64,000 bases of DNA, from NCBI GenBank assembly GCA_029261055.1, contig JAJDCA010000044.1, positions 77,867 through 141,866 on the forward strand. Reading direction: 5' to 3'. The first letter of the stretch is position 1. Each line of letters begins with the position of its first letter. Below are positions 1,726 to 59,590 of this stretch, in pieces. The notes under the pieces were generated by a model. That model was not told the DNA's origin and did no database searches. It saw only the letters and a program-made list of their open reading frames with translations. This stretch comes from Candidatus Omnitrophota bacterium. GTDB taxonomy: Bacteria > Omnitrophota > Gorgyraeia > Zapsychrales > Zapsychraceae. The position numbers and the translations under genes were made by a program.

Positions 1726-4700
1726 ATAATAACCAAAATTCATCAAACGAAAACACATTTAGCATACCGCCTGTTATCCGCCTTTGTAGCCCTAACCTTT
1801 GCCTTCAGCCTCATCATACCGCCTTCATCTATATACGCCCAAAGCGTGCCACAGACTGTGCTTAATCTGCCGGTGCCTGGCGTAATGATATCGGCTACAT
1901 CAACTTTCACTCCAGCGATTATTCAAGGTGTAACAATACATCCGGATAATCCTCTATTATTTGATTTTATTTTGGATCCAGGAGATTCCAATCTTCAAGA
2001 GGAAGAATTGAAAGATGAAGCCACCAAACTTATCAAATATTTTCTGGCTTCACTAACTGTAAAAGAAGAAGACTTCTGGGTGAACCTTTCTCCCTATGAA
2101 AAAGACCGCATTATCCCGCAAGCATTGGGTGATACAGAAATGGGTCGTGATATGCTTGCACAGGATTATCTCTTAAAGCAGCTAACTTCTTCATTAATGT
2201 ATCCGGAGGAGGAAATAGGTGAAGAATTTTGGCAAAGAGTACATGAAAAAGCCTATGAAAAATTTGGCACAACCGATATCCCCATGAATACCTTTAATAA
2301 AATTTGGATTGTACCGGAAAAAGCAGGCATCTATGAACATGAAACTAGCGCCTTTGTTACCGATACTCACCTAAAGGTTATGTTAGAAGAAGATTATGTA
2401 GCATTACAAGAGAATCTTGGTGTTGAAGAATATGGCCTTGATAGTATTACCAAGGAAGAGTCTACTATCATCAGTGGTGTTTCTTCAGAAGTAATTCGTG
2501 ATGTTTTGCTTCCTGAGATAGAAAAAGAGATTAATCAGGGGGCAACCTTTGCTAATCTGCGCCAAATTTATAATTCTATGCTCCTTGCCACATGGTACAA
2601 GATGAGGATCAAAGAAAATCTTTTAGGTAAAGTCTACGTAGACCAGAGCAAAACCAAAGGTATTGATACAGATGACAAACAGATTAACCAAAAAATTTAT
2701 ACTCAATATCTTGAAGCATTCAAAAAAGGTGTGTATGACTACATGAAGGAAGACTATAACCCTAATACGAAAGAAATTATTCCCAGAAAATATTTTTCAG
2801 GTGGGCACGATATTGTACACGTACGAGATAAAATTAAACTCAAGACTGATGATGCCGCCCTTGCTCAAGAAATTGCGATTGATTCTGAGGAAAAAATTAC
2901 GATTAGAGCCGGTTTGGAAGAACATAATAAAAAAATAACCGTGGCTATTAAAAATTTTGATAACGCAGCATTGACTATTCTTGATCATCCATTAAAAGAT
3001 AGTATCAAAGAGGAAACAAGAAAAGATAAATTAGTCGGTCGTTGGGTGAAAGATGCCGAAGTTTCTTACTATAAAATGCTTAATCTTTTTCTTCCTACTT
3101 TTTTAGATCAACATAAGAATAAACTAGAGACAATAAAAGATAAAATTGAAACGGTCGCTGATTATTTAAATAGAGAATTTAGCAAAGAAATGGAAGAAGA
3201 CGGTGTAAAAATTGAAGGAGCTTATAATCTTGAATATGTTAAAAAAGTTATTGAAGCAGAAATGAAGTATACAATCTATAAACCAAAACTTGAGAATTTA
3301 GAAAAAATAAAAGGAATGCATGATCGAAAAGAAATTTTCCCAAATGAAATTAAGCTTAATGATCAATATAAATTAACAATTCCGAAAGGTCTAAAGGTAT
3401 TTAGCACAGGAGTTTGGCCTCAAAAAATTGATCCTTACACGACTGGACATGATGAAATGGGAACAAATTGGATACTGTTGCACAGTTTATCGACGGTTTT
3501 TTACATTGGCGATAAACTTGATTTTAGAAAAGACGAATTAAGTTCTATTTATCTTCGTGAACCAATAATAAAAAGAATGGAAGAAAATGGATTATCACCT
3601 CTGATACGATATCTTCCCATTATGGAAACAGATCAAGATGTGTGGGGTAGCGTGGGAGAACAAACCTTTCTTTTCAAAGTGCTTCCTAAAATTGTTGAAA
3701 CTAATTTGAAAGATATAATGAATTTATTGTTGTTCGAACTAGGTTATGGGGCTGGCGTGGATCATATGCAAATGTTTTATGAAAATAAAGATGGGACTCC
3801 AAATCTAAATAAACCTGATGTTCCTGGAATTTTCTTTAATTTTGTTAAAACTATTCTTGATGTTTATGCTCAGGGTGACAAAAATCACCAATATTATAAA
3901 TTAGCCCAACTTTTGGCTCCACTCTTTTTAAGCGGAAAACTAAAAATACCTTTATTTTTTTCAGGACGCGATGCGGATCGAACAAAATTTACTCCAGAGC
4001 AACTTCAGTCTGTCATAGATAAGGTTAATACTCTCGTTGATGATCAGGGGAAGCCCATAATTAAAATTGCTTATAAATTTCAAAATCCTGCTATTTCTTC
4101 TACAGATATCAGAAAGAATAGACTTTTTTGGAAATTGCCTGATCCTGTAAAATCCGCGATACAAGCATTTAAATTCCCTCGATGGGGATATGAAATAACT
4201 AAAGAAGATGGTGATTTAGAAAACCAACAAAATCAAGTGGCCGAAGAACTTAAAGTAATTTTTAATCAATATTTTACAGGAGTACTTGACCAAGGTTTTA
4301 TTAAAAATACTATTCGTGAAAAATTAAAGAATGCGCTGGGAATAGCCTTAAATGAATTTGACGCCCATTTTCTCAATGAATTGTTAATAGGGTATACGCT
4401 CAAAAAAAGAGATGATGAGAAAGGTCAACCTACGGAATCACTTATTACTTTCGATCATCTTAACGAACGCGGGACAAGGGTGTTAAAGGAGTATAAAGAA
4501 TTAATAAATAAACATAATATAGATAAAAATGGAGAAGAAGAACTTTTAAATTTTATAATAGAAGTCCAAACTGAACTTCTTGCCCCAAGAAGCGTTGAAA
4601 TTTATGAAAAAGGTTCACAAATAATTCCAAAGGAAACTGTTGATGTAGTTGGCCAAAATAGGGTTGACACTATTATAAAAAATACAACTGACTTTCTCGT

Positions 4701-5049
4701 TGATAACGCTTCTATTGCGACTATTAATACAACTGGTGGTATTAATTTTAATCCGGCACAGTATGATTTACAGATTAAGCGGGATATGAGCGGGGCACCT
4801 TTACCTTTTGAAATGCAGCCTTTTGAAAATATTAATGTTGATGGTTTTATTCCTTACATTATCCAACTCGGCCCGGCCAATGTCCCGGCTATCCTTGGGC
4901 TTTCCACACCCTGTTCAGATCAGGAAGAGCAAGACCAGGATTGTGATAATAATACTCCACAGGGACCCAAGCCTGTAGAAGTGAGTTATCAATATTATCG
5001 GGATCCTATGGATGCAAGGCAGGATCACGACTATCTTTCTCTTATTTGA
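1726..5049 (+). CDS. giant secreted paralog P1 (about 1107 aa): conserved N-terminal family domain + unique centre + conserved C-terminal motif; probable ATA (non-ATG) initiation
   Basis: Track ORF 1846..5049 (GTG). The same frame is open back to 1702 and encodes a signal peptide (IITKIHQTKTHLAYRLLSAFVALTFAFSLIIPPSSIYAQS) that aligns residue-for-residue with the signal peptides of P3/P4. AGGAGA at 1712-1717 lies 8 nt before the ATA at 1726. Confidence 0.8.
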   Translation: MITKIHQTKTHLAYRLLSAFVALTFAFSLIIPPSSIYAQSVPQTVLNLPVPGVMISATSTFTPAIIQGVTIHPDNPLLFDFILDPGDSNLQEEELKDEATKLIKYFLASLTVKEEDFWVNLSPYEKDRIIPQALGDTEMGRDMLAQDYLLKQLTSSLMYPEEEIGEEFWQRVHEKAYEKFGTTDIPMNTFNKIWIVPEKAGIYEHETSAFVTDTHLKVMLEEDYVALQENLGVEEYGLDSITKEESTIISGVSSEVIRDVLLPEIEKEINQGATFANLRQIYNSMLLATWYKMRIKENLLGKVYVDQSKTKGIDTDDKQINQKIYTQYLEAFKKGVYDYMKEDYNPNTKEIIPRKYFSGGHDIVHVRDKIKLKTDDAALAQEIAIDSEEKITIRAGLEEHNKKITVAIKNFDNAALTILDHPLKDSIKEETRKDKLVGRWVKDAEVSYYKMLNLFLPTFLDQHKNKLETIKDKIETVADYLNREFSKEMEEDGVKIEGAYNLEYVKKVIEAEMKYTIYKPKLENLEKIKGMHDRKEIFPNEIKLNDQYKLTIPKGLKVFSTGVWPQKIDPYTTGHDEMGTNWILLHSLSTVFYIGDKLDFRKDELSSIYLREPIIKRMEENGLSPLIRYLPIMETDQDVWGSVGEQTFLFKVLPKIVETNLKDIMNLLLFELGYGAGVDHMQMFYENKDGTPNLNKPDVPGIFFNFVKTILDVYAQGDKNHQYYKLAQLLAPLFLSGKLKIPLFFSGRDADRTKFTPEQLQSVIDKVNTLVDDQGKPIIKIAYKFQNPAISSTDIRKNRLFWKLPDPVKSAIQAFKFPRWGYEITKEDGDLENQQNQVAEELKVIFNQYFTGVLDQGFIKNTIREKLKNALGIALNEFDAHFLNELLIGYTLKKRDDEKGQPTESLITFDHLNERGTRVLKEYKELINKHNIDKNGEEELLNFIIEVQTELLAPRSVEIYEKGSQIIPKETVDVVGQNRVDTIIKNTTDFLVDNASIATINTTGGINFNPAQYDLQIKRDMSGAPLPFEMQPFENINVDGFIPYIIQLGPANVPAILGLSTPCSDQEEQDQDCDNNTPQGPKPVEVSYQYYRDPMDARQDHDYLSLI

Positions 5050-5095
5050 GCAAGATATTCTTTACTGTTACTGCTGAACAAGATGAGGAAACTAA

Positions 5096-8000
5096 ATGAT
5101 CTCCACTCGCTTACCAAACAGACTGGTGGTTTTCGTTATTATTCCGGCTTTTTGTTTCAGCTTGATTATTTTCCCGCCAACATCCTACGCTCAAAACGTT
5201 CTTAACCTTCCACAACTGGGAAGTATGGTTTCTATGAGTCCCGGCTTTAATCCAAGCATCATTCGAGGAATCACTGTCCACCATGATAATCCATTACGCT
5301 TTGATTTTATAGTGGATCGGGGTGATAACCAACTTGACGGTGAAGCTCTAAAGGAACACGGACTAAGGATGGTCAAATATTTCTTAGCCGCACTGACGGT
5401 TCCTGAGAATGAATTGTGGGTTAACCTTTCGCCTTACGAAAAAAATCGAATAATACCGGATACTTTAGGTCGAACAGAAATGGGGCGAGATCTTCTTGCG
5501 CAGGATTATTTACTCAAACAACTAACCGCTTCTTTTATGCATCCGGAGGAAATATTAGGCAAAGATTTTTGGGATAGAATTCACAAAAAAACTAGAGATA
5601 TGTTTGGAACGACGGAAATCCTGATCAACACTTTTAATAAAGTTTGGATTGTGCCGAAAAATGCAATTGTGTACGAAAATGGGCCAAGTGCATTTGTTTC
5701 CAATAGTCATCTGACAGTGATGTTAGAGCAAGACTATTTAGCATTACAAAAAGAAAATAATGTGGAATCTCTTAATGGCGTTGTTGCAGATATTATGAGA
5801 GATGTATTATTGCCTGAAATTGAAAAAGAGGTTAATGAAGGTGAACATTTCGCAAAGTTAAGGCAAGTATACAATTCAATGATTCTTGCGATGTGGTACA
5901 AGCGAAATTTGAAAAAAACACTTTTAGGCCACGTATATGTTGATAAAAATAAGGCAAAAGGAATTGATACCGACGATAAAGAAATCAAACAAAAAATTTA
6001 TGATCAGTATATTGAAGCCTTCAAAAAAGGAGTTTACAACTTTATTAGGGAAGATTATGACACGACAACACACGAGATTATTCCAAAGAAGTATTTTTCA
6101 GGAGGAATGGTTAAACCAGAGCATATGACGATTGAACCTGATTATGCACAACTTGCCCCAGATAATGAGGTACCCATTATAAATGAAATTGGAAATTTAG
6201 CTGTTTTGACAGTCCAAGGGTATGAACTCGGATTAGAATCGAATATTACAGCGGCTAAGTCGAATAAAGAATTCAAGGGGTCAGCAGGAAATTTTTTAAA
6301 AGAATTAGAACTAAACGAAAATCAAAATTTATTAAATAGACTTTTATCGGTGGAAGGCGTCGCTTATTCAGAAATATTAAAATTTCGAGAACCAGATGCT
6401 CAAAGGGCATCTGTGGCTTTAGAGTTGCAAATCTTGGCCGAGACAGTTTTTGAACGGTATACAAAGAATGGTAAAAGTTACTATCGGTTCAGGACGGATA
6501 TTCGTGAACTTCAAATATCACTTGCTGATACACGAAAACTTTTGAATGCAATAAGAAGTATTGATTTTGGAAGAAATGCAAAAATCAGAATTGGAGTCCG
6601 GGGCGAAACCAGACCATTCCATCGTGGAAATCCAAAGAAAGATTTAACGGTTGAACAATTAGATACACTTAAAGGGCGGGTTGATGTGCTTATTTTTAAA
6701 GCCAAAGGTGTTCAAGAGGAATTGCTGGCTTTGGTTGATGAAAACGGAAGATATCTGCGGGCTATCCCAAAATCTCAAAGGGAAACAAATAAGAACCCAG
6801 GTGAGTTTACACAAGGTTCAGTGATTATTGTCACTGATCGACAAGGAAATATTTTAATGCAAGAACGCTCAGATTATAAAATGCAAGGTATTACAAATTT
6901 TGGACCTATGGATTGGACGGTCGGTGGTCATCGTAATCCTGGTGAAACAGTAGAAGAAACTGCTTTACGAGAAGGGGGGGAAGAGACTCGAGGAAAAATT
7001 AATTTTAAATCAGAGCAATTATTTGAAATTGATCAGCGTGCTGTCAACCCTGAGCAGGATACCCGCTGGGTACGAAGGACGTATGTTTATGTTGCCACGG
7101 ATAATGAAAGAGAATCCATCAACCAAAATATGGCAGGAAAAAATTGGAGTACGAATGCCAATGCAGAAGTCAAATCTTTTGCATGGTGGTATCCTGATAA
7201 ATTTGAAGGATCGCTAGACAAAAAGTCATGGTCAACAGTTATAGACTTGTTACGTGATCTACCCAATTTTAATGAAATCATTCAAAAAACAATTGCTTTG
7301 TCTGGAAGTGAAAATGATTCTGCACAAATCGCACCAGTATTATTAACATTACGAAATACTTTATTAAGAATAAATTTTGATAAAACTGATGCAAGGTCAC
7401 ATATGTTAGATGCAAGAAAAATCATTGATGATATTGCAGTAAATTTTGATATTACTTTGGATTATTTAGAACAACTTCGTCAAGCGAAGAATCAAAAAAG
7501 AGGTGGCTTTGAAGAACGCATCATTTTGGATACTAAAGATGGGGAGGATGGAAAAGCCACGCCCGTGAGAAAATTAGTTCGTAACAAAATTCCACAAATG
7601 ATGGTTAAAAATGGACAGAAATTTGTGATACATTTTGCCAGTATGGAAGAATATCAAAACGAATTGTTCGCTAAATTATTTGAAGAATTTATGGAAGTCC
7701 AGAAAGCTGCAAGCAAAGGAAATGCGGATGCGTTGAGTGAGGAGCTGGCTGACCTTTTAGAAGTCATTGCTGCCGTGGAAAATCAAATCTCTTTTAAAAG
7801 TCTTTATTCACCAACTGTTGTAGCATTAGCTTCCTTAAGGCATTATTTTCCAGAGAAATTAAATCAAATTGAGGGAGAAGAGACTGCTCTCAATTGGATT
7901 AACGAATGGTTTATTTCAGAAAATATTTATTCCGGGAAAAATGTAAATGTTCAGTTACCCAAAAATACTCCAGCGTCAATAATTATAAGTCTTGATAAAA

Positions 8001-8242
8001 ATTTAGTAGATCATTTTGATTTATCATTTATTCAAGATGCCTCAACTCTTACAAAATCTGTTGGTGGGATCGATTTGAATCCTGTATTTCTTGACCTACA
8101 ATTTAGAAGAAATTCTAAAGGAGCCCTCCTACCTACAGATCAACAGCCGATTTATGATGTGTCAATAGAAGGAATTTTACCGGTTATCATCAATCTTACA
8201 CCAGCGACACACTTGCTTTTAGAGGTTTCGCAAATAAATTAG
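5096..8242 (+). CDS. giant secreted paralog P2 (1048 aa): conserved N-terminal family domain, central Nudix hydrolase domain, conserved C-terminal motif
   Basis: ATG with GAGGA SD; signal peptide ...PPTSYAQNV; the N-terminal 340 aa align with P1/P3/P4; Nudix box GGHRNPGETVEETALREGGEETRG at about nt 6923-6994. Confidence 0.85.
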   Translation: MISTRLPNRLVVFVIIPAFCFSLIIFPPTSYAQNVLNLPQLGSMVSMSPGFNPSIIRGITVHHDNPLRFDFIVDRGDNQLDGEALKEHGLRMVKYFLAALTVPENELWVNLSPYEKNRIIPDTLGRTEMGRDLLAQDYLLKQLTASFMHPEEILGKDFWDRIHKKTRDMFGTTEILINTFNKVWIVPKNAIVYENGPSAFVSNSHLTVMLEQDYLALQKENNVESLNGVVADIMRDVLLPEIEKEVNEGEHFAKLRQVYNSMILAMWYKRNLKKTLLGHVYVDKNKAKGIDTDDKEIKQKIYDQYIEAFKKGVYNFIREDYDTTTHEIIPKKYFSGGMVKPEHMTIEPDYAQLAPDNEVPIINEIGNLAVLTVQGYELGLESNITAAKSNKEFKGSAGNFLKELELNENQNLLNRLLSVEGVAYSEILKFREPDAQRASVALELQILAETVFERYTKNGKSYYRFRTDIRELQISLADTRKLLNAIRSIDFGRNAKIRIGVRGETRPFHRGNPKKDLTVEQLDTLKGRVDVLIFKAKGVQEELLALVDENGRYLRAIPKSQRETNKNPGEFTQGSVIIVTDRQGNILMQERSDYKMQGITNFGPMDWTVGGHRNPGETVEETALREGGEETRGKINFKSEQLFEIDQRAVNPEQDTRWVRRTYVYVATDNERESINQNMAGKNWSTNANAEVKSFAWWYPDKFEGSLDKKSWSTVIDLLRDLPNFNEIIQKTIALSGSENDSAQIAPVLLTLRNTLLRINFDKTDARSHMLDARKIIDDIAVNFDITLDYLEQLRQAKNQKRGGFEERIILDTKDGEDGKATPVRKLVRNKIPQMMVKNGQKFVIHFASMEEYQNELFAKLFEEFMEVQKAASKGNADALSEELADLLEVIAAVENQISFKSLYSPTVVALASLRHYFPEKLNQIEGEETALNWINEWFISENIYSGKNVNVQLPKNTPASIIISLDKNLVDHFDLSFIQDASTLTKSVGGIDLNPVFLDLQFRRNSKGALLPTDQQPIYDVSIEGILPVIINLTPATHLLLEVSQIN

Positions 8243-8324: not shown

Positions 8325-8353
8325 GTTGTGATGAATATTAAGAAAGGTTGATT

Positions 8354-50800: not shown

Positions 50801-53800
50801 GGCAGCCTCACCGATGTCGACAGGTTTTCAAATATTAAAGATCATAAACCCGAAGGAGTAGGTGGTACGATCGAAGATATTGTCAAAGCTATCGCAACCG
50901 CCAGCATTGAGTCAGGATTAACCAACGATGAAAAAGAAGCGGCCCAAGATCTAAAAACAGCGGCCCAGGAGGCATTAGTTAAGCTTCAATCATCTACTCA
51001 AAGCGCGAAACCGACAATAACACCGGGGCCGACAGAAACAGCATCGCCTACACCAACACCAGGACCATCCCCAACTCCAAACGCGACTCCAGATCCGACA
51101 TCAACTGATGATACGGCTAATTTAGAAAACTTTAATACTAAAATTTCAAAAATTAATGATGAGATGAAAATTTTTAAACATAAATATGCTAACAAGGATA
51201 TACCTGAAGCTGAAGCACAACAAATACAAATACTTTTAAAAGAAATGAAAAATCTTGTCAAAAATACAATAGAAAAAGGCAACGTAACTCCAGAAATGGT
51301 AGATCAAATAAATACTACTAGTAGTACATTTAATATTCACGGTGTTTTGAAAGTCGATTCGCATGAAGACTATACAGGAACACACGGGGAAAAATTAAAT
51401 ACAAATTTAGTTATATATCTAGATAATGACGGATATATTACTGCAGACAAAATTGAAATACCTGATCCTTCACCTACTCCGAGCGCAACACCGACATCAA
51501 CACCAATAGTGACACCAACACCAACTCCGGAAGGTAACATGCAGCTATTGGCGAACATATATGCAAACATGAAACCCAAGGATGCGGCAAACCTTATGTC
51601 TAACATGGATACTGAAACAGCAAAAAAAATGATCCCTTTAATGCCTCAAGAAAAAGTAACAAAAATTCTTGAATTGATGGATCCCCTACAAGCAGAAAAT
51701 ATCAATCCTCAAACAACACCAACCACGGAAGCAGAAATCGGCTCTAAAATTGACGATTTACTTGAGTCTCTTAGCAAGCCGATTGATGGTAAAAAAGATC
51801 CAAAAAATTATGGTACAGACAAAAAGCCCATGTTTGCCCTTTCTATCGTGGGAATTTCTCCTGACACGCAATCGCGAGAAAGCGTTATCGATGAACTTGT
51901 TGTATTGGCTAAGAATAACCCAGAGGCTACGAATCAAATATTAACGAAGCTTTTTGATCACAAGTATATCCAAAGTCATCTCGACAAAAACAATCAATCC
52001 TTAGCCCCCTTGATCAGTATACTTGAAAGAATTGATCCAGGATTAAAGCTGGTGGAGGATAAAATTCAAACGTTAATCAATTCACCAAACCTGGATGTTT
52101 CCACCGCTGGAAATATTTTTCTTCTCTCGCAAACCCTTGAGGTTAAAGGGATTTATGAAGAGTTTAAAAATGTATTGAGTGCAATAGACCGTTCAGACAC
52201 AAACAGTTTAAAAAACGATATAGAAGCACTATTGCGTGAAGTATTTCAATTTTTCTATGATGACAATCAAGACAAAAAGGATCTCCGCATTGAAAAAAAT
52301 GTACAAGATAATATTGTAAAAATTGGCAACCTACTCAAAGATATGGCAAAGCAGAATCCTGAGCAACTGACAAGCGCTAAGGCGTATGACATCATCGATA
52401 ACGCGGATTATTTAACCCTGGACGATAAAAATAGAATCAAAGCTCAAATTTCAACTGGGCAGGGTTATTATGCTATTGTATATTTACTTCTAGTCGGCGT
52501 CGTCGGCAGTATAAGCGGAGCTATTTTAATACAAAGAAAGAAATCTTTTAACAAAAAGCTAGCCGCTATCCATGACGCTATTGTAAAGGACAAACATTAT
52601 TTAACAGCCATAACTCTTTTTAATGATGAAAAATTTAAGGGCCGAAAACGCCGCCAAGTCATACAACATATTCAAACTATTGCTGATAATCAAAACAATC
52701 AGTTTGAACGTACTGTACAGTCACTCGCTCAAAGCATTTTGCAAGAAATTCAATCTGGCGGTGATGATAACGACCTTAAAAAAATTGTTGTTAAGACGCC
52801 TTCCAATACCTCAACTGATGGCGGAGAATCAGAGGAGAAAACTGCTGTAGACTTGATCTCTCGGGGAGAAACTCAAATTACTGAGGTACTGAACCTTGTT
52901 AGTACTTCAAAATGGACAAACGAGAAAGCGACTTGGATAAGAAGCAGTGCGGCACTTTTGCGTAAATTAAGAAATAATTTTGAAAAACAATTAACCTTAC
53001 TTAATCCCACAGATGCAAAAAAAGCAAAAATTATGTTAATGTCTCAACTTAAAACTCTTTCTAAATATTCAAACCTACAATGGACGAAAGAAAATTTTAA
53101 AAATGAAAAAAAATTCTTAGAATCAGTCGTTAACACTTATCAATCTTCGATTGAATCGAGCACACAATTTTCCATACATCAACAACAGCTCCAAACTATT
53201 AGTATGCTTAACACCTTATTCCTCTTTATGGGACGAACACATGAGTTGCCTCATTCTGAAATAACCTTAGAGCCAAAAGAGAAAATTGTGGATGGATTTA
53301 CAGGCTTACCACCAGAGGAAGTGACAGAAGTACATAAAGATATTTTCTCTATCCTCAATGATTGGGCGGTTGACACTGTTGTTGGTAAAGCAGCTTTAAA
53401 AGTACCGGGTTTTGCTACGAAAGACTCTGTTATTGGAATTGAATATAATGGAGAGGCCTTTGCTATTCGTATGAAAGAAAATAACAAGCATGAAGGTATA
53501 AATGTTGTTGTGGGTGGTAAAAAATTTATTGTCCCAGTATGTCCTCTTTGTCAATATGTCGCCTTTGACGCAGATGATCTTGCCAAAAACATGGGGTTTG
53601 AAGGAGAAGATGTGGTTGGCTTTGTTTCCGGACTTTTACGGCAAACTGGCCTTAATCATCCAAATGGTTTCGGTGTAATGCTTTTAGGTGAACGTAGTTC
53701 ACAAAATTTGATTTCCTTACACAAAAGAATGTTTCTCACCGGCCCTAACAAAGGAGAACCACTTAAGGTCCATCCAATTACACTCACAACATTAAATGAA

Positions 53801-54517
53801 TGGATTCAATCATATCCAGAAACAAAAGTATTAACTGATACCGGCTATTTAGACAAAGATTATAGTGCAGAAAATCCTTATAAATTAAAACATCAAAAAG
53901 ACTATGTAGTTGAGATAGGGACAAAAACAGTTGCTTTTTCTCAGGATTATCTTCAAAAATTACATAAAAAAATCGGAAAAAATATTGAAAAAATACAAAC
54001 AAAAAATTCCGGTTTTTTATATATCAAATTCAAAAATAATAAAAATATCCCCGTTTTTACTAGCGATAAAGAAGGTCAAATAACACTTCCTAATTTTATT
54101 GCTCTTCGGGAACCTTGGAGAACTAATCTTCATCCTGAAACCGAACTTTTCGATTCTGCCATGATCAATATCAAAAACGCCCCCCAAGAAGGTGGTATCA
54201 ACCTTAACATGGCGGCGGCGCAGTTTAAGAGGGTAAAGGATCAAAACGGTGGGGTGGCGCCTTTGTTGAGCAATCAGGAATTGCTCAATCTAAATATTCC
54301 TGGACTGATTCCGAAGCTGCGTAGCCTGACACCATTTATCATTCCACCCGGACTCCCAGCCCTCATCGGCCCAACCGGTTGGTTAAATACTGTACCGGGA
54401 GACAGCACAGATACAACCATCCCCGACCAATTCTCCGCCCTGGGGCCTATGGAGAAAAGACAGCGGTTAATCCTGGTTTCACCCAAGCAATCTTTTGTAA
54501 CGCATGTTATAGGTTAA
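44837..54517 (+). CDS. giant secreted paralog P3 (3226 aa): conserved N-terminal family domain, coiled coils, HEAT-like repeats, MgtE-N-like segment, Pro/Thr linkers, one TM helix near aa 2540, conserved C-terminal motif
   Basis: Single intact ORF in the track; AGGAG SD at 44822-44826; signal peptide ...SSIIPPQRAQAQV; the N-terminal 340 aa align with P1/P2/P4. Confidence 0.85.
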   Translation: MNIYLEKRKTCLLYRILAAFICFTFIFSSIIPPQRAQAQVMPTSGTILNLPVPGTMVPATDAYQPPIIRGVALNPEDPLNLNFIIDRGDNRLEGKDLENESQKLIKYFLAALTVPEEEMWVNLSPYESDRIIPNTFGDTEMGRDLLAQDYMLKQLTASLMYPEEELGEDFWAKVYDRAYEEYGTTDIPMNTFNKVWIVPEEAEVYEYDANAVVTKSRLKVMLEEDYVALQNNLGVDEFGLNSLSAEDAGITSGISSEVVREIILPEIEWEVNHGKTFANLRQIYNSMILATWYKEALTESFLGQVYIDQNKTEGVDTQDKQINQKIYKQYVEAFNKGVYDYIREDYDPTTELIVPRRYFSGGAAMRTSKKLNVIDIAMLPTSFINRAAAGVSELQLPILEDTETVPDDLTEMDKIDPLASESVPDYLSETDIPVQPLTLSEKFSEFTKSLEGGDIVSASKELGELKGHIDNLQNVERKKVAKSLNKKLNNFKKQLDKLEKINRTIIKKRVRDIKDLNAMPMGIENSEEINYLISKLENFLATGELNLKELEEFKTSYSTSGFKSIREFIANHPRLEKGSKLAVLTVIALSTAVSMGAAATQSESPQEFIKNLINVDTDLNNTAVANLLEIPEIKELGERYLAGELTEKEYESLAETLKNGNPEIQKLIVTIYQTALAQNIDLDEQGSEALQENQSNPLSLFARTENWVSNQLDSDLEAGALTEDSPANIHTLNPQEVRNVMDGLDDIDYEESPDAIKKAIKVVTNYLNLDSTDPTNDKVTQGNIKIAFKILDKIVDQNENNMTPDMKAATSADLISYIQDSQNSADNIISAIKLVSEIGGENNLEELKTFNKDLKNKYEKSVNEGKQLEQELKQLKRNLDNNPYPKGSFARDIDQNTYDNTLESLKVNQDNIKNLDKIIDTMGDVINDITEREGIVDHQKINELKSQETKLQKEIEQSVSEVKQLKEELKQLKQNLDNNPYPKGDFARDIDQNTYDNTKDALEDKEGDLKKQQDQLKVVEKSLKQIEKGNQGDGLLTRGVKAVTGAAKTVVNVISGDDTQESPTAETIEKIRADLQKKALSDLRSNESSVRRAAVNLLSDIGDEEAIKRLDKIANNDTNPVIKIEASTALDNIQERAGEPPSTIATDEVIKQLESKLQQLEEDAPLNPDGTTKTLSDFPHPGGTKANYGDFMEYGRQRAAIDELQSQIDDLKEILASFTTASAGGEAAGGGDGSGGPDDDDKKSKEALKTLPSVSQITSTHIANIENSSDESVKQESLKVLTRAALDGILSEKDIKNVIATIEELPTPDGIIEKEQAYTIKMQTKVLELMQDILNRMDSDNDRQKSLSTVTELSKSDLGIPANSSVNTLGTGQFAGNIENVKDLFVDSFKTAGDSLPELMKMSASPTNTLSNPRIGSSFFSESGVEKFADIPFDLNDSSDRWLLNKVVSFLETNVISSDVDDYFKTNIIKALTALGLPRSIDVISSIDTTDIDLKQDIEKTITTLQQRWGITPPSNIVPETEDQANTKLTERLHQFDNSKVRALTPDIVNDAIKGMDHPDNETKQTAIHIIGDVLGSKIPVPDEVIDKLIASTGTSTPELQVPSFKALFEGALNNKISQENIETVQSMPYDPTSDAQNRDREILIEIYQVKQNITDVQMNNDAPLVQKTAITDLEEKIKKTTGSNIPILRDRLIPEALETLVAQTYNPNVETSVREHAIISVGNLADSTPGITHENFKNYIPEGSNKSIGETLTYLATNDLDEGVQNAAKEALKKIDLVSTAPTVILSPKPVEIPTPTENAEIKAQINEISSIDPTNFTSDDITAVVAGIEHPTKEIQKAAVEKAGDIIENNKKPPQQLVDGFIKNLTDDTGKNNIPIYNELLNAIRQDKVLTDQGDTLRKIANDDNDPRSSVAKNFHDDYLLHQEIFKLSSDSLKDNSFGRTTIIYNLQEFIINSQTLEHLSGIDAIAKLAIDDSNFLVREVAVTVLGSLTDVDRFSNIKDHKPEGVGGTIEDIVKAIATASIESGLTNDEKEAAQDLKTAAQEALVKLQSSTQSAKPTITPGPTETASPTPTPGPSPTPNATPDPTSTDDTANLENFNTKISKINDEMKIFKHKYANKDIPEAEAQQIQILLKEMKNLVKNTIEKGNVTPEMVDQINTTSSTFNIHGVLKVDSHEDYTGTHGEKLNTNLVIYLDNDGYITADKIEIPDPSPTPSATPTSTPIVTPTPTPEGNMQLLANIYANMKPKDAANLMSNMDTETAKKMIPLMPQEKVTKILELMDPLQAENINPQTTPTTEAEIGSKIDDLLESLSKPIDGKKDPKNYGTDKKPMFALSIVGISPDTQSRESVIDELVVLAKNNPEATNQILTKLFDHKYIQSHLDKNNQSLAPLISILERIDPGLKLVEDKIQTLINSPNLDVSTAGNIFLLSQTLEVKGIYEEFKNVLSAIDRSDTNSLKNDIEALLREVFQFFYDDNQDKKDLRIEKNVQDNIVKIGNLLKDMAKQNPEQLTSAKAYDIIDNADYLTLDDKNRIKAQISTGQGYYAIVYLLLVGVVGSISGAILIQRKKSFNKKLAAIHDAIVKDKHYLTAITLFNDEKFKGRKRRQVIQHIQTIADNQNNQFERTVQSLAQSILQEIQSGGDDNDLKKIVVKTPSNTSTDGGESEEKTAVDLISRGETQITEVLNLVSTSKWTNEKATWIRSSAALLRKLRNNFEKQLTLLNPTDAKKAKIMLMSQLKTLSKYSNLQWTKENFKNEKKFLESVVNTYQSSIESSTQFSIHQQQLQTISMLNTLFLFMGRTHELPHSEITLEPKEKIVDGFTGLPPEEVTEVHKDIFSILNDWAVDTVVGKAALKVPGFATKDSVIGIEYNGEAFAIRMKENNKHEGINVVVGGKKFIVPVCPLCQYVAFDADDLAKNMGFEGEDVVGFVSGLLRQTGLNHPNGFGVMLLGERSSQNLISLHKRMFLTGPNKGEPLKVHPITLTTLNEWIQSYPETKVLTDTGYLDKDYSAENPYKLKHQKDYVVEIGTKTVAFSQDYLQKLHKKIGKNIEKIQTKNSGFLYIKFKNNKNIPVFTSDKEGQITLPNFIALREPWRTNLHPETELFDSAMINIKNAPQEGGINLNMAAAQFKRVKDQNGGVAPLLSNQELLNLNIPGLIPKLRSLTPFIIPPGLPALIGPTGWLNTVPGDSTDTTIPDQFSALGPMEKRQRLILVSPKQSFVTHVIG
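47437..47841 (+). repeat. internal tandem duplication in P3: two roughly 110-nt near-identical segments about 291 bp (97 codons) apart, encoding ...LKQLK(R/Q)NLDNNPYPKG(S/D)FARDIDQNTYDNT...
   Basis: Nucleotide and protein repeats seen directly; hand-derived coordinates are approximate (a few nt). Confidence 0.7.
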
Positions 54518-54572
54518 ATAGTTATCAAAATAAAAGAATGGAAGCTCATTAAAAATAGTGTATACTTTAAAT

Positions 54573-55046
54573 ATGAAAAAGTTACGAATATACATGGACA
54601 CATCAATTTACAACTTTGTGATTGCTGATGATGTTCCCCGCGAAAGGGAAGTCACATTAAAACTGATTGACGAAATTAAACATGGTAAATATGAAGTGTT
54701 TATCTCTGATGTTGTTGTACGTGAAATAAACGACGCCCCGGATAATATTGCGTTAAAATTACGAGATGTGATCAATGAGGTCAGCCCAACAGATATTCCT
54801 ATTGATGAAGAAGTGGAAACTTTGGCGGACAAATATGTGGCCGAAAAAATTATTCCTGAAAAATATCGCGACGATGCCCTTCATATAGCTGCAGCATCTA
54901 TTCATAATATGGATGTTATTGTTAGCTGGAATTTTAAGCATATTGTCAAATTAAAAACAAAAAAAGAAGTTGTCGGCATTAATTCATTAATGGGATATAA
55001 AGAAATTGAAATATATTCCCCTATGGAGGTTATTGAAAATGATTAA
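54573..55046 (+). CDS. PIN-domain protein (VapC-like toxin) cassette inserted after P3
   Basis: IYMDTSIY N-terminal Asp motif, DDALHIAAAS and VSWNFKHIV PIN signatures; the TATACT at 54561-54566 lies only 6 nt upstream of the ATG, too close to act as a -10 for this start. Confidence 0.65.
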   Translation: MKKLRIYMDTSIYNFVIADDVPREREVTLKLIDEIKHGKYEVFISDVVVREINDAPDNIALKLRDVINEVSPTDIPIDEEVETLADKYVAEKIIPEKYRDDALHIAAASIHNMDVIVSWNFKHIVKLKTKKEVVGINSLMGYKEIEIYSPMEVIEND

Positions 55047-55209
55047 AGAACCCAAACCTATGCAAGAAATTCATGCCATTCAAGAAAAAATTTATGAGGA
55101 AGAAAAAAATCTAACAGTCAAAGAAAAATTAAATCGTCTTCATGAAAAAGCAATGGCTGCAAAAAACCGATTGGGGTTAAAAATTAAAACTTTATCTCAA
55201 ACTGTATAA
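55006..55209 (+). CDS. small charged helical protein, possible cognate antitoxin (overlaps the PIN gene end)
   Basis: 67 aa, coiled-coil-like, 41-nt overlap. Confidence 0.3.
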   Translation: MKYIPLWRLLKMIKEPKPMQEIHAIQEKIYEEEKNLTVKEKLNRLHEKAMAAKNRLGLKIKTLSQTV

Positions 55210-55216
55210 AAGGCTT

Positions 55217-55474
55217 CCGCCTTTGTTGAGTAATCAGGAATTGCTTAATTTGAATATTATCGGACTCGTGCCTGACCTCCGTAGTATCACACCATTTATC
55301 GTTCCCCCCGGACTCCCAGCCCTCATCGGCCCAACTGGTTGGCTGAACACTGTACCGGATGACACGCAAGACACAACCACCCACGACCAGTTCTCCGCCC
55401 TAGGGCCTATGAAGAAAAGACAGAGGTTAACTCTAGTTTCGCCAAAACGATTCTTTGTGGCGAATGTTGTATAA
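55217..55474 (+). pseudogene. orphan duplicate of the last 85 codons of P3 (about 85% nt identity to 54255..54517), no upstream gene body
   Basis: Direct nucleotide comparison: LSNQELLNLNI.GL.P.LRS.TPFI.PPGLPALIGPTGWLNTVP...FSALGPM.KRQRL.LVSPK... Confidence 0.65.
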
Positions 55475-55592
55475 AGTGCAATTATCCAGCCTTCATTGGC
55501 TAAACTGATTACCCATTTCCACAATTTCACCGACGAGATATATCCTAAATTCCAAAATTATCGACCAAGAAATAAATTGGCGCAGCGCCTTG

Positions 55593-55607
55593 AAATATGG
55601 CATACTT
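55593..55607 (+). promoter_or_regulatory. second copy of the AAATATGGCATACTT motif, 39 nt upstream of the P4 start
   Basis: Exact match to 44699-44713. Confidence 0.4.
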
Positions 55608-55645
55608 TTACTAAAGTTATAAAACCATAATACAATTTTAGAACT

Positions 55646-58600
55646 ATGAATAATTATTTACATTTCAGACAAAAAAATTTAGGTTATCGTATTTTAGCTG
55701 TTTTTGTGTGTTTTACATTTATAGCTGCTACGCTGACACCGCCGCAATACGCCCACGCGCAGGTTGCGCCTACCGCCGGGACTGTTCTTAATCTTCCTTT
55801 CCCCGGAAGCATGATTCAATCGACCGATGCGTTTACGCCTGTTTCTCTGTGGGGCATAACGCTTGATCCTCAGGATCCATTTAAATTTTATTTCACACTC
55901 GATAAAGGGCATACCGGTTTATCCGGTGAGGATTTGGAAGCGGAGGCGACACAATTGGCGAAATATTTTCTGGCGGCCTTAACCGTTCCGGAAGAAGAAA
56001 TGTGGGTAAATCTTTCGCCGTATGAAAAAAATCGTATCATTCCGCAAAGCTTCGGGGATACCGAAATGGGACGTGATCTATTGGCCCAGGATTATCTTTT
56101 AAAGCAACTCACCGCCTCGTTAATGTATCCAGAAGAGGATATTGGGGAAAATTTTTGGGAACGCATTTACGCCAAAGCCTATGAAAAGTATGGGACAACC
56201 GATATTCCGATGGATACGTTTCACAAGGTCTGGATCGTGCCGGAGCGTGCGCGTGTGGTGGAGGAAGGTAACAGTGCGTATATTGTGGATAGTTATTTGA
56301 AGGTGATGTTAGAGGATGATTATGTTGCTGCGCAACATAATCGTGGCGCGTCGCTCGTGACTCGTGACTCGGAAATAAAATCAAATTTGAAACGCGCCAC
56401 GCGTCACGAGCGACTAGCGACGAACCTTATCCGCGAAATAATCATTCCCGAAATCGAACGCGAGGTCAATGAAGGCGCAACATTCGCGAAGTTACGGCAG
56501 ATTTACCAATCCATGATTCTGGCCACATGGTACAAAATCCGCATGGAAGAAAGCCTGCTCGGTCAAATTTATGTCGATCAAAACAAAACCAAAGGTGTCG
56601 ATACGCATGATAAAAAAATAAATCAAAAAATCTACAATCAATATATCGCCGCCTTCCAGGAAGGCGTTTACGACTACATCAAAGAAGACTACGACCCAAT
56701 CACCCAAACCATTGTCCCGCGTAAATATTTTTCGGGGGGATTTTCTGGAAAACTAAGAAATTTCCTTATTATTATGAGCGCTACAGCAGCAATTAGTGCG
56801 GGCATCATATTCTCCAATTTAGGAATATCCAACGCAGGTACTTTTGATAGCCCAGGAAAAGAAACAGTTGCTGTAAGTCTGGTTAGTACTTCAAATAAAG
56901 GTCCTTCTACAATTAGAGATAGAAATAATGAAATACGTAAAAAACGCCATTCTAATAAAACCACTGTTGTTCAAAAAAAGGAAACCTTAAAAAAACCCCA
57001 AGAACAGAGTAATCCAATAAAAAACCTTACTTGGCAATTTAATGACAGTCTCAATGAAATAACAAAAAATAAGAAACAGGTCTCATCAACAACTGTAATT
57101 CAGCCCAATGATCCGTTGACTCCACTCGCAGATAATAAAATAACGCCTGAAACAAAAACAGACGACAATCAAGAAATTTCGAAACCGAAAGTGACAGTAG
57201 TTGATGAACCTCAGGATAATAACCTGAATGAATCAAATGAAATAAAAGTAACCGAAACATCGATAAAACAATCAAACGAAACCACTGAGCAGCCATCCAT
57301 ATCCGATGTCGACACTACTACTGAACAAAATGTCCAAACCACTCAAAATGATACTCTGGAAATCCAACCCCTGTCCATAGAAACTGACACTACGAAAGAG
57401 GAAAAATCCTCTTCAGGAAGTGACATACAAATTACAGAAACTATCAAAGAACCTACTACCAGCACCCAAGAACTAGTAAACCAATTTAAAAAAGATATTT
57501 CCGGAAACATTGATATTGAAGAAAATAAGCTTGCTGCAATACCTATTGCTCAACATTTAAAAGACAATCCTACTGATTGGGATGAATTTGCAAATATGGT
57601 TTTAACTGACCCAGATTATGATACGATCACCAAAATACTTCCCAATTTGTATTCGGTAGTTGATTTTGATAAATTGGAAATTTTACTTAAAAATCTTTCC
57701 GAAAGTCTATACGGCTATTGGAATTCCGTATTACAAAATAAGGCCACGAAAATACTCGAAGACCTCCAGCAGAAAGAATTCGACAGGATAATAAATAACT
57801 TCGTTAGTACCATTATTAATGGTGAATTAAATGATTATGACACTCACGAATACCCATTGATTGCCTTCGTAAAAAAACATCGCTTTCTATACCCAAAAAT
57901 GCAAGACACCTTATCTAATTATGACAATCAAGCAGTTAGAAAAATTTACCAACAGGATATTCTTCCGGAATTTGAAAATAGTGCAATCAAGACTATTAAA
58001 AATAAAGTACCGGAAAATGTCGACAATAAAGCCTCACAATTTATTAAAGAAAGACTTCCTGGTGATGAAGTTGAATCCATTAATATCGATATCAATAACC
58101 TTATGCCTTCCGGAGGTGTGGGGGAAACCTTATTAACAAATTATTTAAAAGAAAAAGGCATATACCTAATTTCTCTATTGTTAGGCGTAGGGAGCCTTGG
58201 CTTTTTTATATTGATTTGGGGGAAAAAATGGATATCAGAATTTTTTATGAAAAGAACATCTGTTAACTCTACTACATCAAGAAATATTAATAAAACATCA
58301 AACAAACAAATGCAAATTAATCCTATCAAAACCAATTTTCCACCGAATAACTCTCCAAAATCTATTGAAGATCCTAATAATGCACCTACTTTTCTAAATA
58401 CAATTCAACGTAAACCTTCTTGGATCATTGATGTACCGTCATCGATTTATGATGTACAAATGAAATTATCCCAAAAAAATATCAAACTAAAAAATGATTT
58501 ACTAAATATCATTGTAAATGTGGCAAAACCCACCAGATCTGATCTAAATACTGTCAAAGCTATCAAAATAGCACAAAAACTTGATTTTCACATTGCAAGC

Positions 58601-59590
58601 GATGTCTTGTATTATTTGATACTTAGAGAAGGGGACAGTGATGAAATTAAAAATGTATTTAAAGGCATTGCCAAAATAGCCAGGTTTATCCTTGAAGAAA
58701 GTAAAATTGAGAAGACATATTTTGACTCATTGTTGAAAGGTACTGTTAACGAATCTGCACGTGGAATAACTCCAGAAATGATTACTGTTTGGATAAACAA
58801 TTTAACGTCTTCTGATGTTAAAATAAATCATGAAGCAGCCGATCACCTTATTGAAGTTGTCGCAGGGATGACCACTGAAAGTAGTACAACGTTGCTGCCA
58901 CAGGAAAAAATTTCACAAATTATTGCAAATCTAAATACTCATTCTCCAGGGACTGTTTTTTATTCAAGCATGGTTCTGCGCGCATTGCTTTACAAGAGTA
59001 TTTATGTGATTAAACAATTGCAGAATAATAAAAATGAAAAAACCAATTTAGTTTTGAATGATGCTATCGACCAAATTGAAATTATCCAAACACGCGGACA
59101 TAATGCAATTGTTAATGATAAAAATACAATGCCTTTAAGGTTACCTTTCCTAAATGGTTACCCATCAGAATTAAAAAAGGTGATATCCATGGAAAAATTA
59201 AGGAAATCTAATATTAGAAATCGAGCAGTCACTAATCGATTAGATGAAGTAGTGAAGCATGCTGACGATCTGGCTGTTGATATTGCCATGCACGTAAACC
59301 AAGACGAAGAGTTAGGCTACGGTGGTATCAACCTGGACCGTGCAATGATGGATTTTGTGATTGAGCGGGATGCGGAAGGGATGCCATTGCCGGTCAGCCA
59401 ACAGCCAGTGGAGCATATCCGTATGAATCTGGAAGGTTTCCGACCGATCGTGGAAATCGCTCCGTTGATCTTGCCGGCGTTCTTAAGTTTACTTGATCAA
59501 AACGCCCCCAACACACATCCCAACCAGGATGAACTTTCCGCCCTAAGCCCCGTAGATAAAAAAAATCTAATAAACTCCGCAGCATTTTAA
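55646..59590 (+). CDS. giant secreted paralog P4 (1314 aa): conserved N-terminal family domain, Ser/Thr/Glu-rich low-complexity region, two hydrophobic segments, conserved C-terminal motif
   Basis: Signal peptide ...TLTPPQYAHAQV; N-terminal alignment with P1-P3; C-terminal GGINLD...LPVSQQPVEHIRMNLEGFRPIVEIAPLILP motif. Confidence 0.85.
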   Translation: MNNYLHFRQKNLGYRILAVFVCFTFIAATLTPPQYAHAQVAPTAGTVLNLPFPGSMIQSTDAFTPVSLWGITLDPQDPFKFYFTLDKGHTGLSGEDLEAEATQLAKYFLAALTVPEEEMWVNLSPYEKNRIIPQSFGDTEMGRDLLAQDYLLKQLTASLMYPEEDIGENFWERIYAKAYEKYGTTDIPMDTFHKVWIVPERARVVEEGNSAYIVDSYLKVMLEDDYVAAQHNRGASLVTRDSEIKSNLKRATRHERLATNLIREIIIPEIEREVNEGATFAKLRQIYQSMILATWYKIRMEESLLGQIYVDQNKTKGVDTHDKKINQKIYNQYIAAFQEGVYDYIKEDYDPITQTIVPRKYFSGGFSGKLRNFLIIMSATAAISAGIIFSNLGISNAGTFDSPGKETVAVSLVSTSNKGPSTIRDRNNEIRKKRHSNKTTVVQKKETLKKPQEQSNPIKNLTWQFNDSLNEITKNKKQVSSTTVIQPNDPLTPLADNKITPETKTDDNQEISKPKVTVVDEPQDNNLNESNEIKVTETSIKQSNETTEQPSISDVDTTTEQNVQTTQNDTLEIQPLSIETDTTKEEKSSSGSDIQITETIKEPTTSTQELVNQFKKDISGNIDIEENKLAAIPIAQHLKDNPTDWDEFANMVLTDPDYDTITKILPNLYSVVDFDKLEILLKNLSESLYGYWNSVLQNKATKILEDLQQKEFDRIINNFVSTIINGELNDYDTHEYPLIAFVKKHRFLYPKMQDTLSNYDNQAVRKIYQQDILPEFENSAIKTIKNKVPENVDNKASQFIKERLPGDEVESINIDINNLMPSGGVGETLLTNYLKEKGIYLISLLLGVGSLGFFILIWGKKWISEFFMKRTSVNSTTSRNINKTSNKQMQINPIKTNFPPNNSPKSIEDPNNAPTFLNTIQRKPSWIIDVPSSIYDVQMKLSQKNIKLKNDLLNIIVNVAKPTRSDLNTVKAIKIAQKLDFHIASDVLYYLILREGDSDEIKNVFKGIAKIARFILEESKIEKTYFDSLLKGTVNESARGITPEMITVWINNLTSSDVKINHEAADHLIEVVAGMTTESSTTLLPQEKISQIIANLNTHSPGTVFYSSMVLRALLYKSIYVIKQLQNNKNEKTNLVLNDAIDQIEIIQTRGHNAIVNDKNTMPLRLPFLNGYPSELKKVISMEKLRKSNIRNRAVTNRLDEVVKHADDLAVDIAMHVNQDEELGYGGINLDRAMMDFVIERDAEGMPLPVSQQPVEHIRMNLEGFRPIVEIAPLILPAFLSLLDQNAPNTHPNQDELSALSPVDKKNLINSAAF
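56344..56420. repeat. GC-rich palindromic element in-frame inside the P4 N-terminal domain: 12-bp inverted repeat gtcgctcgtgac(56350-56361)/gtcacgagcgac(56403-56414), outer tggcgcg/cgcgcca, tandem tcgtgac x2
   Basis: Seen in sequence; coincides exactly with the only segment of the family domain where P4 diverges from its paralogs (RGASLVTRDSEIKSNLKRATRHERLATN). Confidence 0.7.

Follow-up and report, generated by a model that had tools for sequence, protein, structure and literature searches.

Omnitrophota are ultra-small, host-dependent or predatory bacteria with giant open reading frames (ORFs) that carry few annotated domains (Seymour et al. 2023, PMC10066038). Giant 'Archaeovorins' carry HEAT, NUDIX, radical S-adenosylmethionine (SAM), and GGDEF domains, and their N-terminal regions 'generally lack identifiable domains' (West-Roberts et al. 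2023, 10.1101/2023.11.21.568195). A catalogue of 916 proteins of at least 10 thousand amino acids (kaa), 94% of them with a signal peptide or transmembrane (TM) helix, defined a 'multi-enzyme metabolic cluster' class, the topology of which was noted as contradicting an intracellular reading (10.64898/2026.06.07.730766). For V. archaeovorus, predator RNA was found inside dead prey cells, and transfer of molecules into prey was argued (2026, PMC13153191). In the first three of these papers, full-text searches identified no mention of the two conserved modules described here, an N-terminal domain of ∼325 amino acids (aa) (N-domain) and a C-terminal module opening with GGIDLNP (C-module). The two modules bracket the proteins P1 to P4, which are encoded on a 64,000-nucleotide (nt) stretch of Candidatus Omnitrophota DNA (contig JAJDCA010000044.1; the whole stretch is referred to as the window). 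Tentatively, and at somewhat less than an even chance, P1 to P4 are read here as carrying an exported handle in two parts, which would close on itself and serve to address or assemble variable payloads beyond the cytoplasm, perhaps at a host cell; this destination and purpose are inferred only.

P1 to P4 and their relatives resemble the Omnitrophota giants in phylum, in having a signal peptide and/or TM helices, and in their mixture of metabolic, regulatory, and repeat domains, with HEAT, NUDIX, PGM, ROK, UDPGP, starch synthase, radical SAM, HATPase_c, GGDEF, HAD, and WD40 domains shared. They differ in size and layout. The giants are at least 10 kaa long and contain SecA-DEAD or C39 domains as well as numerous TM helices, whereas P1 to P4 are 1.0 to 3.2 kaa long and the family spans 0.4 to 5.3 kaa (best 150 matches), mostly without internal TM segments. 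No SecA or C39 domain was matched in P1 to P4 using Pfam.

Several better-known systems have comparable layouts. TpsA proteins of two-partner secretion (TPS) likewise combine a Sec signal, a conserved N-terminal domain (∼250 to 300 aa), a long variable passenger, paralogs, and orphan fragments born of recombination. However, the TPS domain is a β-helix (PF05860), whereas the N-domain is modelled as α/β with long helices, and TpsA lacks a conserved C-terminal module. PF05860 had no Pfam match at E ≤ 0.1 in P1 to P4, and no TpsB (Omp85/POTRA) gene was found near them in the window or recurred in 78 GTDB loci. The type IX secretion system (T9SS) is known mainly from Bacteroidota. Its cargo proteins share with the family a signal peptide, arbitrary cargo, a conserved C-terminal module (60 to 100 aa), scattered paralogs, and the absence of linked machinery; the family differs in its additional, obligatory N-domain and its cytoplasm-type cargo, and Pfam and NCBIfam models of the T9SS C-terminal domain (CTD) did not match the C-terminal regions of P1 to P4. 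LapA/RTX adhesins also place constant N- and C-terminal modules around a long variable middle, and both ends are needed for their placement. Substrates of type I secretion systems carry no Sec signal peptide, whereas family members start with a canonical Sec-type N-terminus; no RTX repeats were detected in P1 to P4 (Pfam), and no linked ABC/MFP transporter genes lie nearby in the window. In cohesin-dockerin systems many enzymes are assembled by means of a small C-terminal module that is bound by a larger partner domain, a mode of binding also proposed here, but there is no sequence or fold similarity, and in the family both partners are present on every protein. Polymorphic toxins (Rhs/YD, CdiA, LXG, PAAR, MafB) were also considered but are a poor fit, as there is no marker domain, the C-terminus is conserved, and the genes downstream are PIN-type toxin-antitoxin pairs rather than cognate immunity genes.

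Architecture and extent of the family

P1 (1726 to 5049; 1107 aa), P2 (5096 to 8242; 1048 aa), P3 (44837 to 54517; 3226 aa), and P4 (55646 to 59590; 1314 aa) are all open on the + strand of the window, and P2 is present also on a 22.6-kb contig assembled from run SRR15505515. An earlier note, made from the sequence alone, had described them as a family of four giant proteins with a shared N-terminal domain, a shared C-terminal motif, and unrelated centres. The shared ends and unrelated centres were confirmed by tblastn against the window: the N-domains were 54 to 65% identical (E values, 1e−111 to 1e−158) and the C-modules 30 to 41% identical (1e−5 to 1e−14), and the centres had no mutual similarity (best E value, 0.18). 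Exactly four N-domains and four C-modules were found in the window, plus one orphan copy of the 3′ end of P3 (matched at 55220 to 55471). The description as very long applies to P3 only.

The N-domains occupy aa 39 to 360 of P1 (nt 1840 to 2805), aa 33 to 337 of P2 (nt 5192 to 6106), aa 39 to 362 of P3 (nt 44951 to 45922), and aa 39 to 365 of P4 (nt 55760 to 56740), and the constant sequence blocks that the note had listed are present and invariant in all four. The core of the C-module (∼58 aa, from an invariant GGI to LLLGL) has the consensus GGIDLNP..LDLQIKRDGNGVPLP..QP....I.GF.PVIINI.P..NLPLLLGL. Its distance from the C-terminus is 54 to 149 aa (median, 86), and the tail beyond it varies and is mostly acidic. 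The GG of the module is encoded at nt 4735 in P1 (module, ∼4735 to 4902, followed by an acidic or Cys-containing tail), 8063 in P2 (∼8063 to 8224), 54191 in P3 (∼54191 to 54361), and 59321 in P4 (∼59321 to 59491). A homolog search with the C-module returned only short fragments of 60 to 121 aa and nothing on function.

To examine pairing of the modules, hidden Markov models (HMMs) of each were run against every stop-to-stop ORF of the 78 GTDB loci and the window. The two occurred together in 71 intact ORFs, with the N-domain alone in three and the C-module alone in two. In two loci, L049 (6421 to 9996) and L056 (9986 to 13700), N-only and adjacent C-only ORFs were the halves of split genes. 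The N-domain and C-module are obligately paired, and both are far better conserved than anything between them. The split genes carry a frameshift or stop, or an assembly error, and may be pseudogenes.

The N-domain of P4 was modelled with AlphaFold from a 72-sequence alignment (mean predicted local distance difference test [pLDDT], 78.6; predicted template modelling score [pTM], 0.74), giving a predicted α/β fold in which two β-hairpins pack against approximately nine helices. Foldseek comparison of this model with 350,542 chains returned nothing at E ≤ 1e−3, a profile of the N-domain returned nothing from Protein Data Bank (PDB) sequences at E ≤ 10, and neither the N-domains nor the C-modules of P1 to P4 matched Pfam or NCBIfam. 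When full-length P1, P3, and P4 were searched against PDB sequences, HEAT/alphaRep matches were obtained in P3 only, and the NCBIfam scan of P1 to P4 added nothing to the Pfam matches. The N-domain is without relatives among characterised families and is as unassignable as first reported, and the C-module is likewise unassigned. No conserved His or Cys and no HExxH motif occur in the N-domain alignment; the conserved polar residues include (P4 numbering) N122, T139, Q148, D149, Y150, K153, K194, E273, N275, R284, Q285, K297, Y309, and Y333.

Far from being a family of four, the N-domain profile matched 8,385 clusters (50% identity) at E ≤ 1e−3 and 6,794 at E ≤ 1e−30 in a HMMER scan of 1.84 billion cluster representatives. 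Among the best 150 matches, proteins of 420 to 5,312 aa, all but one had the start of the match in their first ∼30 residues, and the match was over by approximately residue 570; the usual place of the N-domain is residues 1 to ∼400. A word-indexed search with a profile of the four N-domains identified 1,559 scoring proteins among 8,000 candidates examined; their named sources were nearly all Candidatus Omnitrophota/Omnitrophica, and all were labelled 'hypothetical'. At least 576 loci with an N-domain were found in GTDB species representatives and at least 362 more in JGI/ENA metagenomes. Single metagenome-assembled genomes (MAGs) contributed 5 to 9 copies each among the best 80 GTDB loci, often in tandem. 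Since nine ORFs run past the ends of their GTDB loci at >3.7 kaa, members longer than 5.3 kaa are conceivable. Annotation of this architecture in databases, which the earlier note named as a refutation, exists only trivially: the proteins are deposited by the thousands, but they are named 'hypothetical protein' or after their cargo.

A few records carry stray labels ('uncultured Planctomycetales', Heimdallarchaeota, Pacearchaeota, Ca. Elulimicrobium), and records with non-Omnitrophota labels are probably mislabelled or mis-binned. One such MAG (DYOU01, 'Candidatus Elulimicrobium sp.', placed by NCBI in the Patescibacteria group; loci L045 and L070) has at least four tandem members. Either the family extends past what NCBI calls Omnitrophota, or this MAG is an Omnitrophota relative or misclassified. 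The family is very large and phylum-specific, and is one of the largest uncharacterised families in Omnitrophota.

Payloads between the conserved ends

The exchangeable payloads range from 0.2 to >3.5 kaa in length. Pfam domains in 34 mid-length members included PGI, PGM, and UDPGP; ROK, PfkB, and GHMP kinases; radical SAM with a B12-binding domain, GGDEF, HATPase_c, DnaJ, and HAD; and proline dehydrogenase, FHA, and HEAT and TPR repeats. In 14 long members, PGK (E value, 1.6e−103), enolase (5.8e−86), class-I aldolase (5.6e−76), and TIM were found, together with a PEP-utilising enzyme, isocitrate lyase, malate synthase, HpcH/HpaI aldolase, MaoC, 2-hydroxyacid dehydrogenase, SNF2, protein kinases, and WD40 propellers. 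Precomputed Pfam assignments for 120 further members added GAPDH with class-II aldolase, FBPase, PPDK, starch synthase, enolase with a DeoC-type aldolase, Macro, GNAT, an M48 peptidase with ABC1, and metallophosphatase, and a separate scan of six members added GH116 (in P0219). Catalytic signatures of the payload enzymes are intact. Jointly, the payloads cover nearly every step of Embden-Meyerhof glycolysis and gluconeogenesis, plus glycogen and sugar-nucleotide metabolism, and some fusions are pathway coherent: one 2,819-aa member (L020) carries PGK (aa 1684 to 2089) followed by enolase (aa 2114 to 2564), another (L069) joins aldolase to TIM, and a third (L002) combines malate synthase, isocitrate lyase, and aldolase. 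No toxin domain was found in the ∼170 members surveyed. The payloads are cytoplasm-type enzymes and scaffolds, not toxins.

The Nudix box reported for P2 corresponds to a NUDIX domain (aa 576 to 703; nt 6821 to 7204; Pfam, 3.7e−11) with an intact REx2EE box, and a MazG-like stretch was additionally found by Pfam (aa 854 to 896; nt 7655 to 7783). In P3, Pfam bore out the HEAT-like repeats (e.g., aa 1083 to 1130; HEAT_2, 1.5e−12) and the MgtE_N-like segment (aa 2239 to 2289; 4.1e−5, just under the Pfam cutoff), and it identified a DUF3179 domain (aa 2860 to 3016; nt 53414 to 53884). The Pro/Thr linkers of P3 and the S/T/E-rich tract of P4, both also reported, can be read straight from the sequence. 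The DUF3179 domain contains a CPLC motif and lies between the second TM-like segment and the C-module. No recognisable domain was identified in the centres of P1 and P4 by Pfam and PDB sequence searches.

Four members of 1.3 to 2.0 kaa (P0135, P0380, P0392, and P0429) are named by NCBI after the cargo enzyme alone, the names used being 'phosphoglycerate kinase', 'glucose-6-phosphate isomerase', and 'UTP--glucose-1-phosphate uridylyltransferase'. On a 6.3-kb contig (L040; JAHJCZ010000116.1), a family member is accompanied by PGK (398 aa) and TIM (261 aa) genes of normal size that stand alone. Since free-standing versions occur in Omnitrophota DNA, the bracketed enzymes are not obviously sole copies.

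Such contents could also belong to a resident scaffold, the main rival of the export reading but an arrangement we consider unlikely. The N-terminus would then be an uncleaved tether, with the N-domain and C-module at the cytoplasmic face holding the cell's own enzymes at the inner membrane, and only the loops between the TM pairs of P3 and P4 would be exposed outside. In keeping with this, the payloads are almost all of cytoplasmic type (ATP-, UTP-, GTP-, SAM-, and NAD-dependent enzymes, DnaJ, FHA, SNF2, and kinases), fusions follow pathways, no secretion genes are linked in the window or the 78 GTDB loci, and NCBI annotation takes certain members for the PGK, PGI, or UGPase of the genome concerned. 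The occurrence of free-standing PGK and TIM genes in Omnitrophota argues against it, as do features of the N-terminus described below.

Export signals, topology, and probable contact between the ends

An A↓Q site was identified in 172 of 186 members, 3 to 14 residues before an LNLP.PG motif. Residue −1 was Ala in all 172, and residue −3 was A, V, S, G, I, T, or L in 97% of them. The n-region had a median net charge of +3 and the h-region a median length of 16 aa, often closed by PP. By classical rules, these are the features of a Sec signal cleaved by signal peptidase I (SPase-I), namely a positive n-region, an h-region of 7 to 17 aa, and small neutral residues at −3 and −1, so the Sec signal peptide first reported for P1 to P4 holds across the family. 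Sec export with a cleavable signal peptide is supported by this pattern, albeit indirectly. The predicted signal peptides span aa 1 to 38 in P1 (A38↓Q39), aa 1 to 32 in P2 (A32↓Q33), and aa 1 to 38 in both P3 and P4.

The P1 frame is open from 1726 as reported, but its first codon is ATA and no canonical start precedes the signal peptide. The frame opens with ATA ATA, nine bases past AGGAG (1712 to 1716), where P3 and P4 have ATG; the first ATG, GTG, or TTG is a GTG at 1846, beyond the signal peptide, and its use would delete that peptide. Either P1 uses a rare ATA/ATT-type start, or its start codon was recently lost.

Where one TM helix had been reported in P3 and none in P4, each has two internal TM-like hydrophobic segments. 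In P3 these are TM1 (aa 581 to 599; nt 46577 to 46633) and TM2 (aa 2547 to 2565; nt 52475 to 52531), and in P4 TM1 (aa 374 to 392; nt 56765 to 56821), directly after the N-domain, and TM2 (aa 839 to 857; nt 58160 to 58216). Both TM1 segments resemble a second signal peptide, with a positive n-region, a hydrophobic core, and an AxA-like end. A similar segment occurs within 150 aa after the N-domain in 18 of 233 members (∼8%; e.g., SAPA↓QE and AYA↓QD), as though the signal peptide and N-domain had been placed in front of a protein with an existing signal of its own. Scored with a crude hydropathy scale, 84 to 93% of members have no internal hydrophobic segment, and ∼7 to 15% have one, with mixed charge orientation.

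Positive charges are found ahead of TM1 and behind TM2 in both P3 and P4, and the two segments are separated by Pro/Thr-rich or S/T/E-rich tracts. By the positive-inside rule this pattern would leave the N-domain and the C-terminal part cytoplasmic. It suits the resident scaffold, as both TM segments obey the rule only with the two ends cytoplasmic and the linkers facing outward. However, the N-terminus has all the features of a cleaved signal, its charge orientation is wrong for an anchor with the N-terminus outside, and its h-region (16 to 17 aa, then PP) is short for a TM helix.

In an AlphaFold model of full-length P2, the N-domain was predicted confidently and the centre poorly, the latter because the alignment is unalignable there. 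Residues ∼991 to 1008 (GGIDLNPVFLDLQF) formed an isolated confident stretch (pLDDT, 94/73) with disordered flanks. Independently of this model, mean-field direct coupling analysis (DCA) was applied to 271 unique pairs of N-domain and C-module (effective number of sequences [Meff], 251), using 144 variable N-domain columns and 56 C-module columns. Inter-module pairs ranked 8, 11, 13, 14, 15, 20, and 23 of all pairs, with scores of 1.87 to 1.34 (1.87 to 1.52 for ranks 8, 11, 13, 14, and 15). The maxima of four random-pairing nulls were 1.06 to 1.33 and those of four within-cluster nulls 0.96 to 1.36. As the sequence set is star-like, with 210 of the 271 in one cluster, subfamily structure is only a weak confounder.

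The coupled pairs, in P2 numbering, were N105-N995, M262-L999, K288-E1025, I59-L994, V280-I1027, T173-L1034, L107-V997/P996, L139-L994, and N189-Q1002. C-side residues 994 to 1002 coincide with the stretch predicted confidently by AlphaFold, and the N-side partners are coupled among themselves (columns 109-285, 117-305, and 149-274), consistent with a single patch on the N-domain. In an earlier mutual information analysis of 175 pairs, later replaced by DCA, K288-E1025, V280-I1027, and N189-Q1002 were of borderline significance. Co-evolution and AlphaFold confidence together suggest that the N-domain and C-module probably touch.

Such a contact could also form between proteins. In a head-to-tail assembly, the C-module of one protein would bind the N-domain of another, so that the many paralogs would be linked non-covalently into a chain or coat of enzymes, a counterpart of the covalent giants of other Omnitrophota. 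It could form on whichever side of the membrane and is compatible with both an exported handle and a resident scaffold. One N-domain and one C-module per protein in strict pairing, their co-evolution, the many paralogs per genome, conservation of both modules far above that of the centres, and the covalent giant multi-enzyme proteins of the same phylum (10.64898/2026.06.07.730766) would all be expected of it. However, binding in trans is indistinguishable from binding in cis in these data, and free exchange of partners predicts weak co-evolution within a protein, yet it was detectable. Such an assembly is distinctly improbable in our view.

The preferred reading is of an exported, two-part handle. 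Each protein would comprise, in order, a Sec/SPase-I signal peptide (AxA↓Q), the N-domain, the payload, the C-module, and the acidic tail. The start of the C-module would dock on the patch of the N-domain, making both ends one split handle, which, being divided between the two ends, would form only after the whole polypeptide had been made. This handle could give every payload that it encloses the same address or the same label for assembly. Sec would export the proteins, and the handle would then direct them to the envelope or coat or to a host or prey cell, where the payloads may act as second copies of cytoplasm-type enzymes (those of glycolysis, of glycogen and sugar-nucleotide metabolism, and of the glyoxylate shunt, as well as NUDIX/MazG, radical SAM, GGDEF, and kinases), with HEAT and WD40 scaffolds. 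The family would then be a small-format counterpart of the giant multi-enzyme proteins of Omnitrophota. Two separate conjectures concern chemistry: C39-type cleavage might take place at the invariant GG of the C-module, as at a double-glycine site, and a chemical bond might join the C-module to the invariant Gln at the mature N-terminus.

Several observations weigh against this export reading. No delivery machinery or recurring neighbour was found in the 78 GTDB loci, and the window genes are housekeeping. The docking is read from AlphaFold confidence values rather than coordinates, and DCA at this Meff is underpowered and does not separate contacts in cis from those in trans. The charge bias around the TM segments of P3 and P4 contradicts the signal peptide on where the N-domain lies, and an odd number of hydrophobic segments, as in the ∼7 to 15% of members with a single one, would separate the N-domain from the C-module. 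Moreover, Sec export of unfolded radical SAM/B12, nucleotide-dependent, and SNF2 domains is sensible only if they reach another cytoplasm. A host destination is plausible, since Omnitrophota are host-dependent or predatory, transfer into prey has been proposed, and the giants carry the same domain types together with signal peptides or TM helices.

Neighbouring genes and implications for Omnitrophota

A Phd/YefM-like antitoxin gene (8348 to 8644) and a PIN toxin gene (8619 to 9068; PIN_3, E value, 1e−22) lie on the + strand directly downstream of P2; this pair is probably not part of the bracket system. Also on the + strand, a weak PIN-like ORF (54558 to 55046; E value, 0.004) and a 67-aa ORF (55006 to 55209) follow P3, and a 90-aa ORF (59626 to 59898) and a PIN toxin gene (59889 to 60308; E value, 7.5e−11) follow P4. 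PIN-type pairs beside family members did not recur in the 78 GTDB loci. The orphan copy (55218 to 55471, + strand) repeats the last ∼84 codons of P3, comprising the distal half of the C-module and the tail, and is 81% identical in DNA and 80% in protein to the true 3′ end (54258 to 54511). As the PIN-like cassette (54558 to 55209) sits between the two, the stretch from 54258 to 55471 has the look of a scar left in the C-module region by insertion or recombination.

The tandem paralogs, flanking toxin-antitoxin modules, and orphan 3′ fragment from which a likeness to polymorphic effector or toxin loci had been drawn are thus all real. In such a locus a constant delivery module would carry variable toxic cargo beside immunity genes, and the paralogs, the recombination to which the fragment points, and the toxin-antitoxin modules beside P2, P3, and P4 would be in place. 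The likeness ends there, as the cargo consists of enzymes and scaffolds with no toxin domain in the ∼170 members surveyed, the variable part is internal with a conserved C-terminus, and the neighbours are standard Phd/YefM-PIN pairs rather than immunity genes, without recurrence in other genomes. The markers first reported as absent (Rhs/YD, haemagglutinin/TPS, LXG, PAAR, VENN, and T9SS CTD) are indeed missing from P1 to P4 according to Pfam. A toxin locus is therefore very improbable.

No secretion system is adjacent to P1 to P4 within the window. The conserved genomic neighbours that the earlier note proposed to seek did not emerge, as all-against-all BLAST of 1,437 ORFs from the 78 GTDB loci and the window identified no recurring neighbour family. 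The second-largest ORF cluster in that comparison, from 22 loci, is seemingly an antisense shadow ORF in the N-domain. Two antisense ORFs (− strand; 178 and 268 aa) also lie inside P3 (47818 to 49203). The antisense ORFs within P3 and opposite the N-domain are most likely shadow ORFs and not genes.

The remaining genes of the window (G+C content, 38 to 42%) are housekeeping and include hemA, ferrochelatase, an Na+/H+ exchanger, F-type ATP synthase, AsmA, a Rieske/cytochrome b complex, a multihaem cytochrome c, an extracytoplasmic function (ECF) sigma factor with an anti-sigma/VWA protein, a NuoF-like protein, a cytochrome c oxidase operon with assembly genes, and a radical SAM enzyme. The region from 12354 to 40015 encodes the ATP synthase, the Rieske/cytochrome b complex, the multihaem cytochrome c (977 aa), and a complete aa3-type cytochrome c oxidase operon with CtaA, CtaB, and SCO1. 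On this gene content the organism is a respiratory member of the Omnitrophota, unlike the oxidase-lacking Omnitrophota that dominate the complete-genome preprint (10.64898/2026.06.07.730766).

The HMMs of the N-domain and C-module provide a sequence handle on thousands of 'hypothetical' Omnitrophota proteins, and docking of the two modules at named residues is a concrete hypothesis for how long multi-enzyme proteins are handled in the phylum. The family also sharpens a paradox to which the giant proteins had already pointed: host-dependent nanobacteria place canonical export signals ahead of cytoplasmic enzymes that need cofactors and nucleotides. It is a real possibility that the two-part handle represents a new sorting or assembly principle. 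A bolder proposal, which we regard as doubtful, is that the bracket is a novel system for handling proteins, in which the handle of a completed chain licenses export and delivery, or head-to-tail assembly, of blocks of central metabolism (glycolysis, glycogen metabolism, and the glyoxylate shunt) that are active on or in a host. If true, Omnitrophota would operate metabolism, or commandeer it, outside their own cells, and their giant proteins would pursue this strategy in covalent form. With members annotated as the PGK, PGI, or UGPase of their genome, some enzymes counted in metabolic reconstructions of Omnitrophota may lie outside the cytosol.

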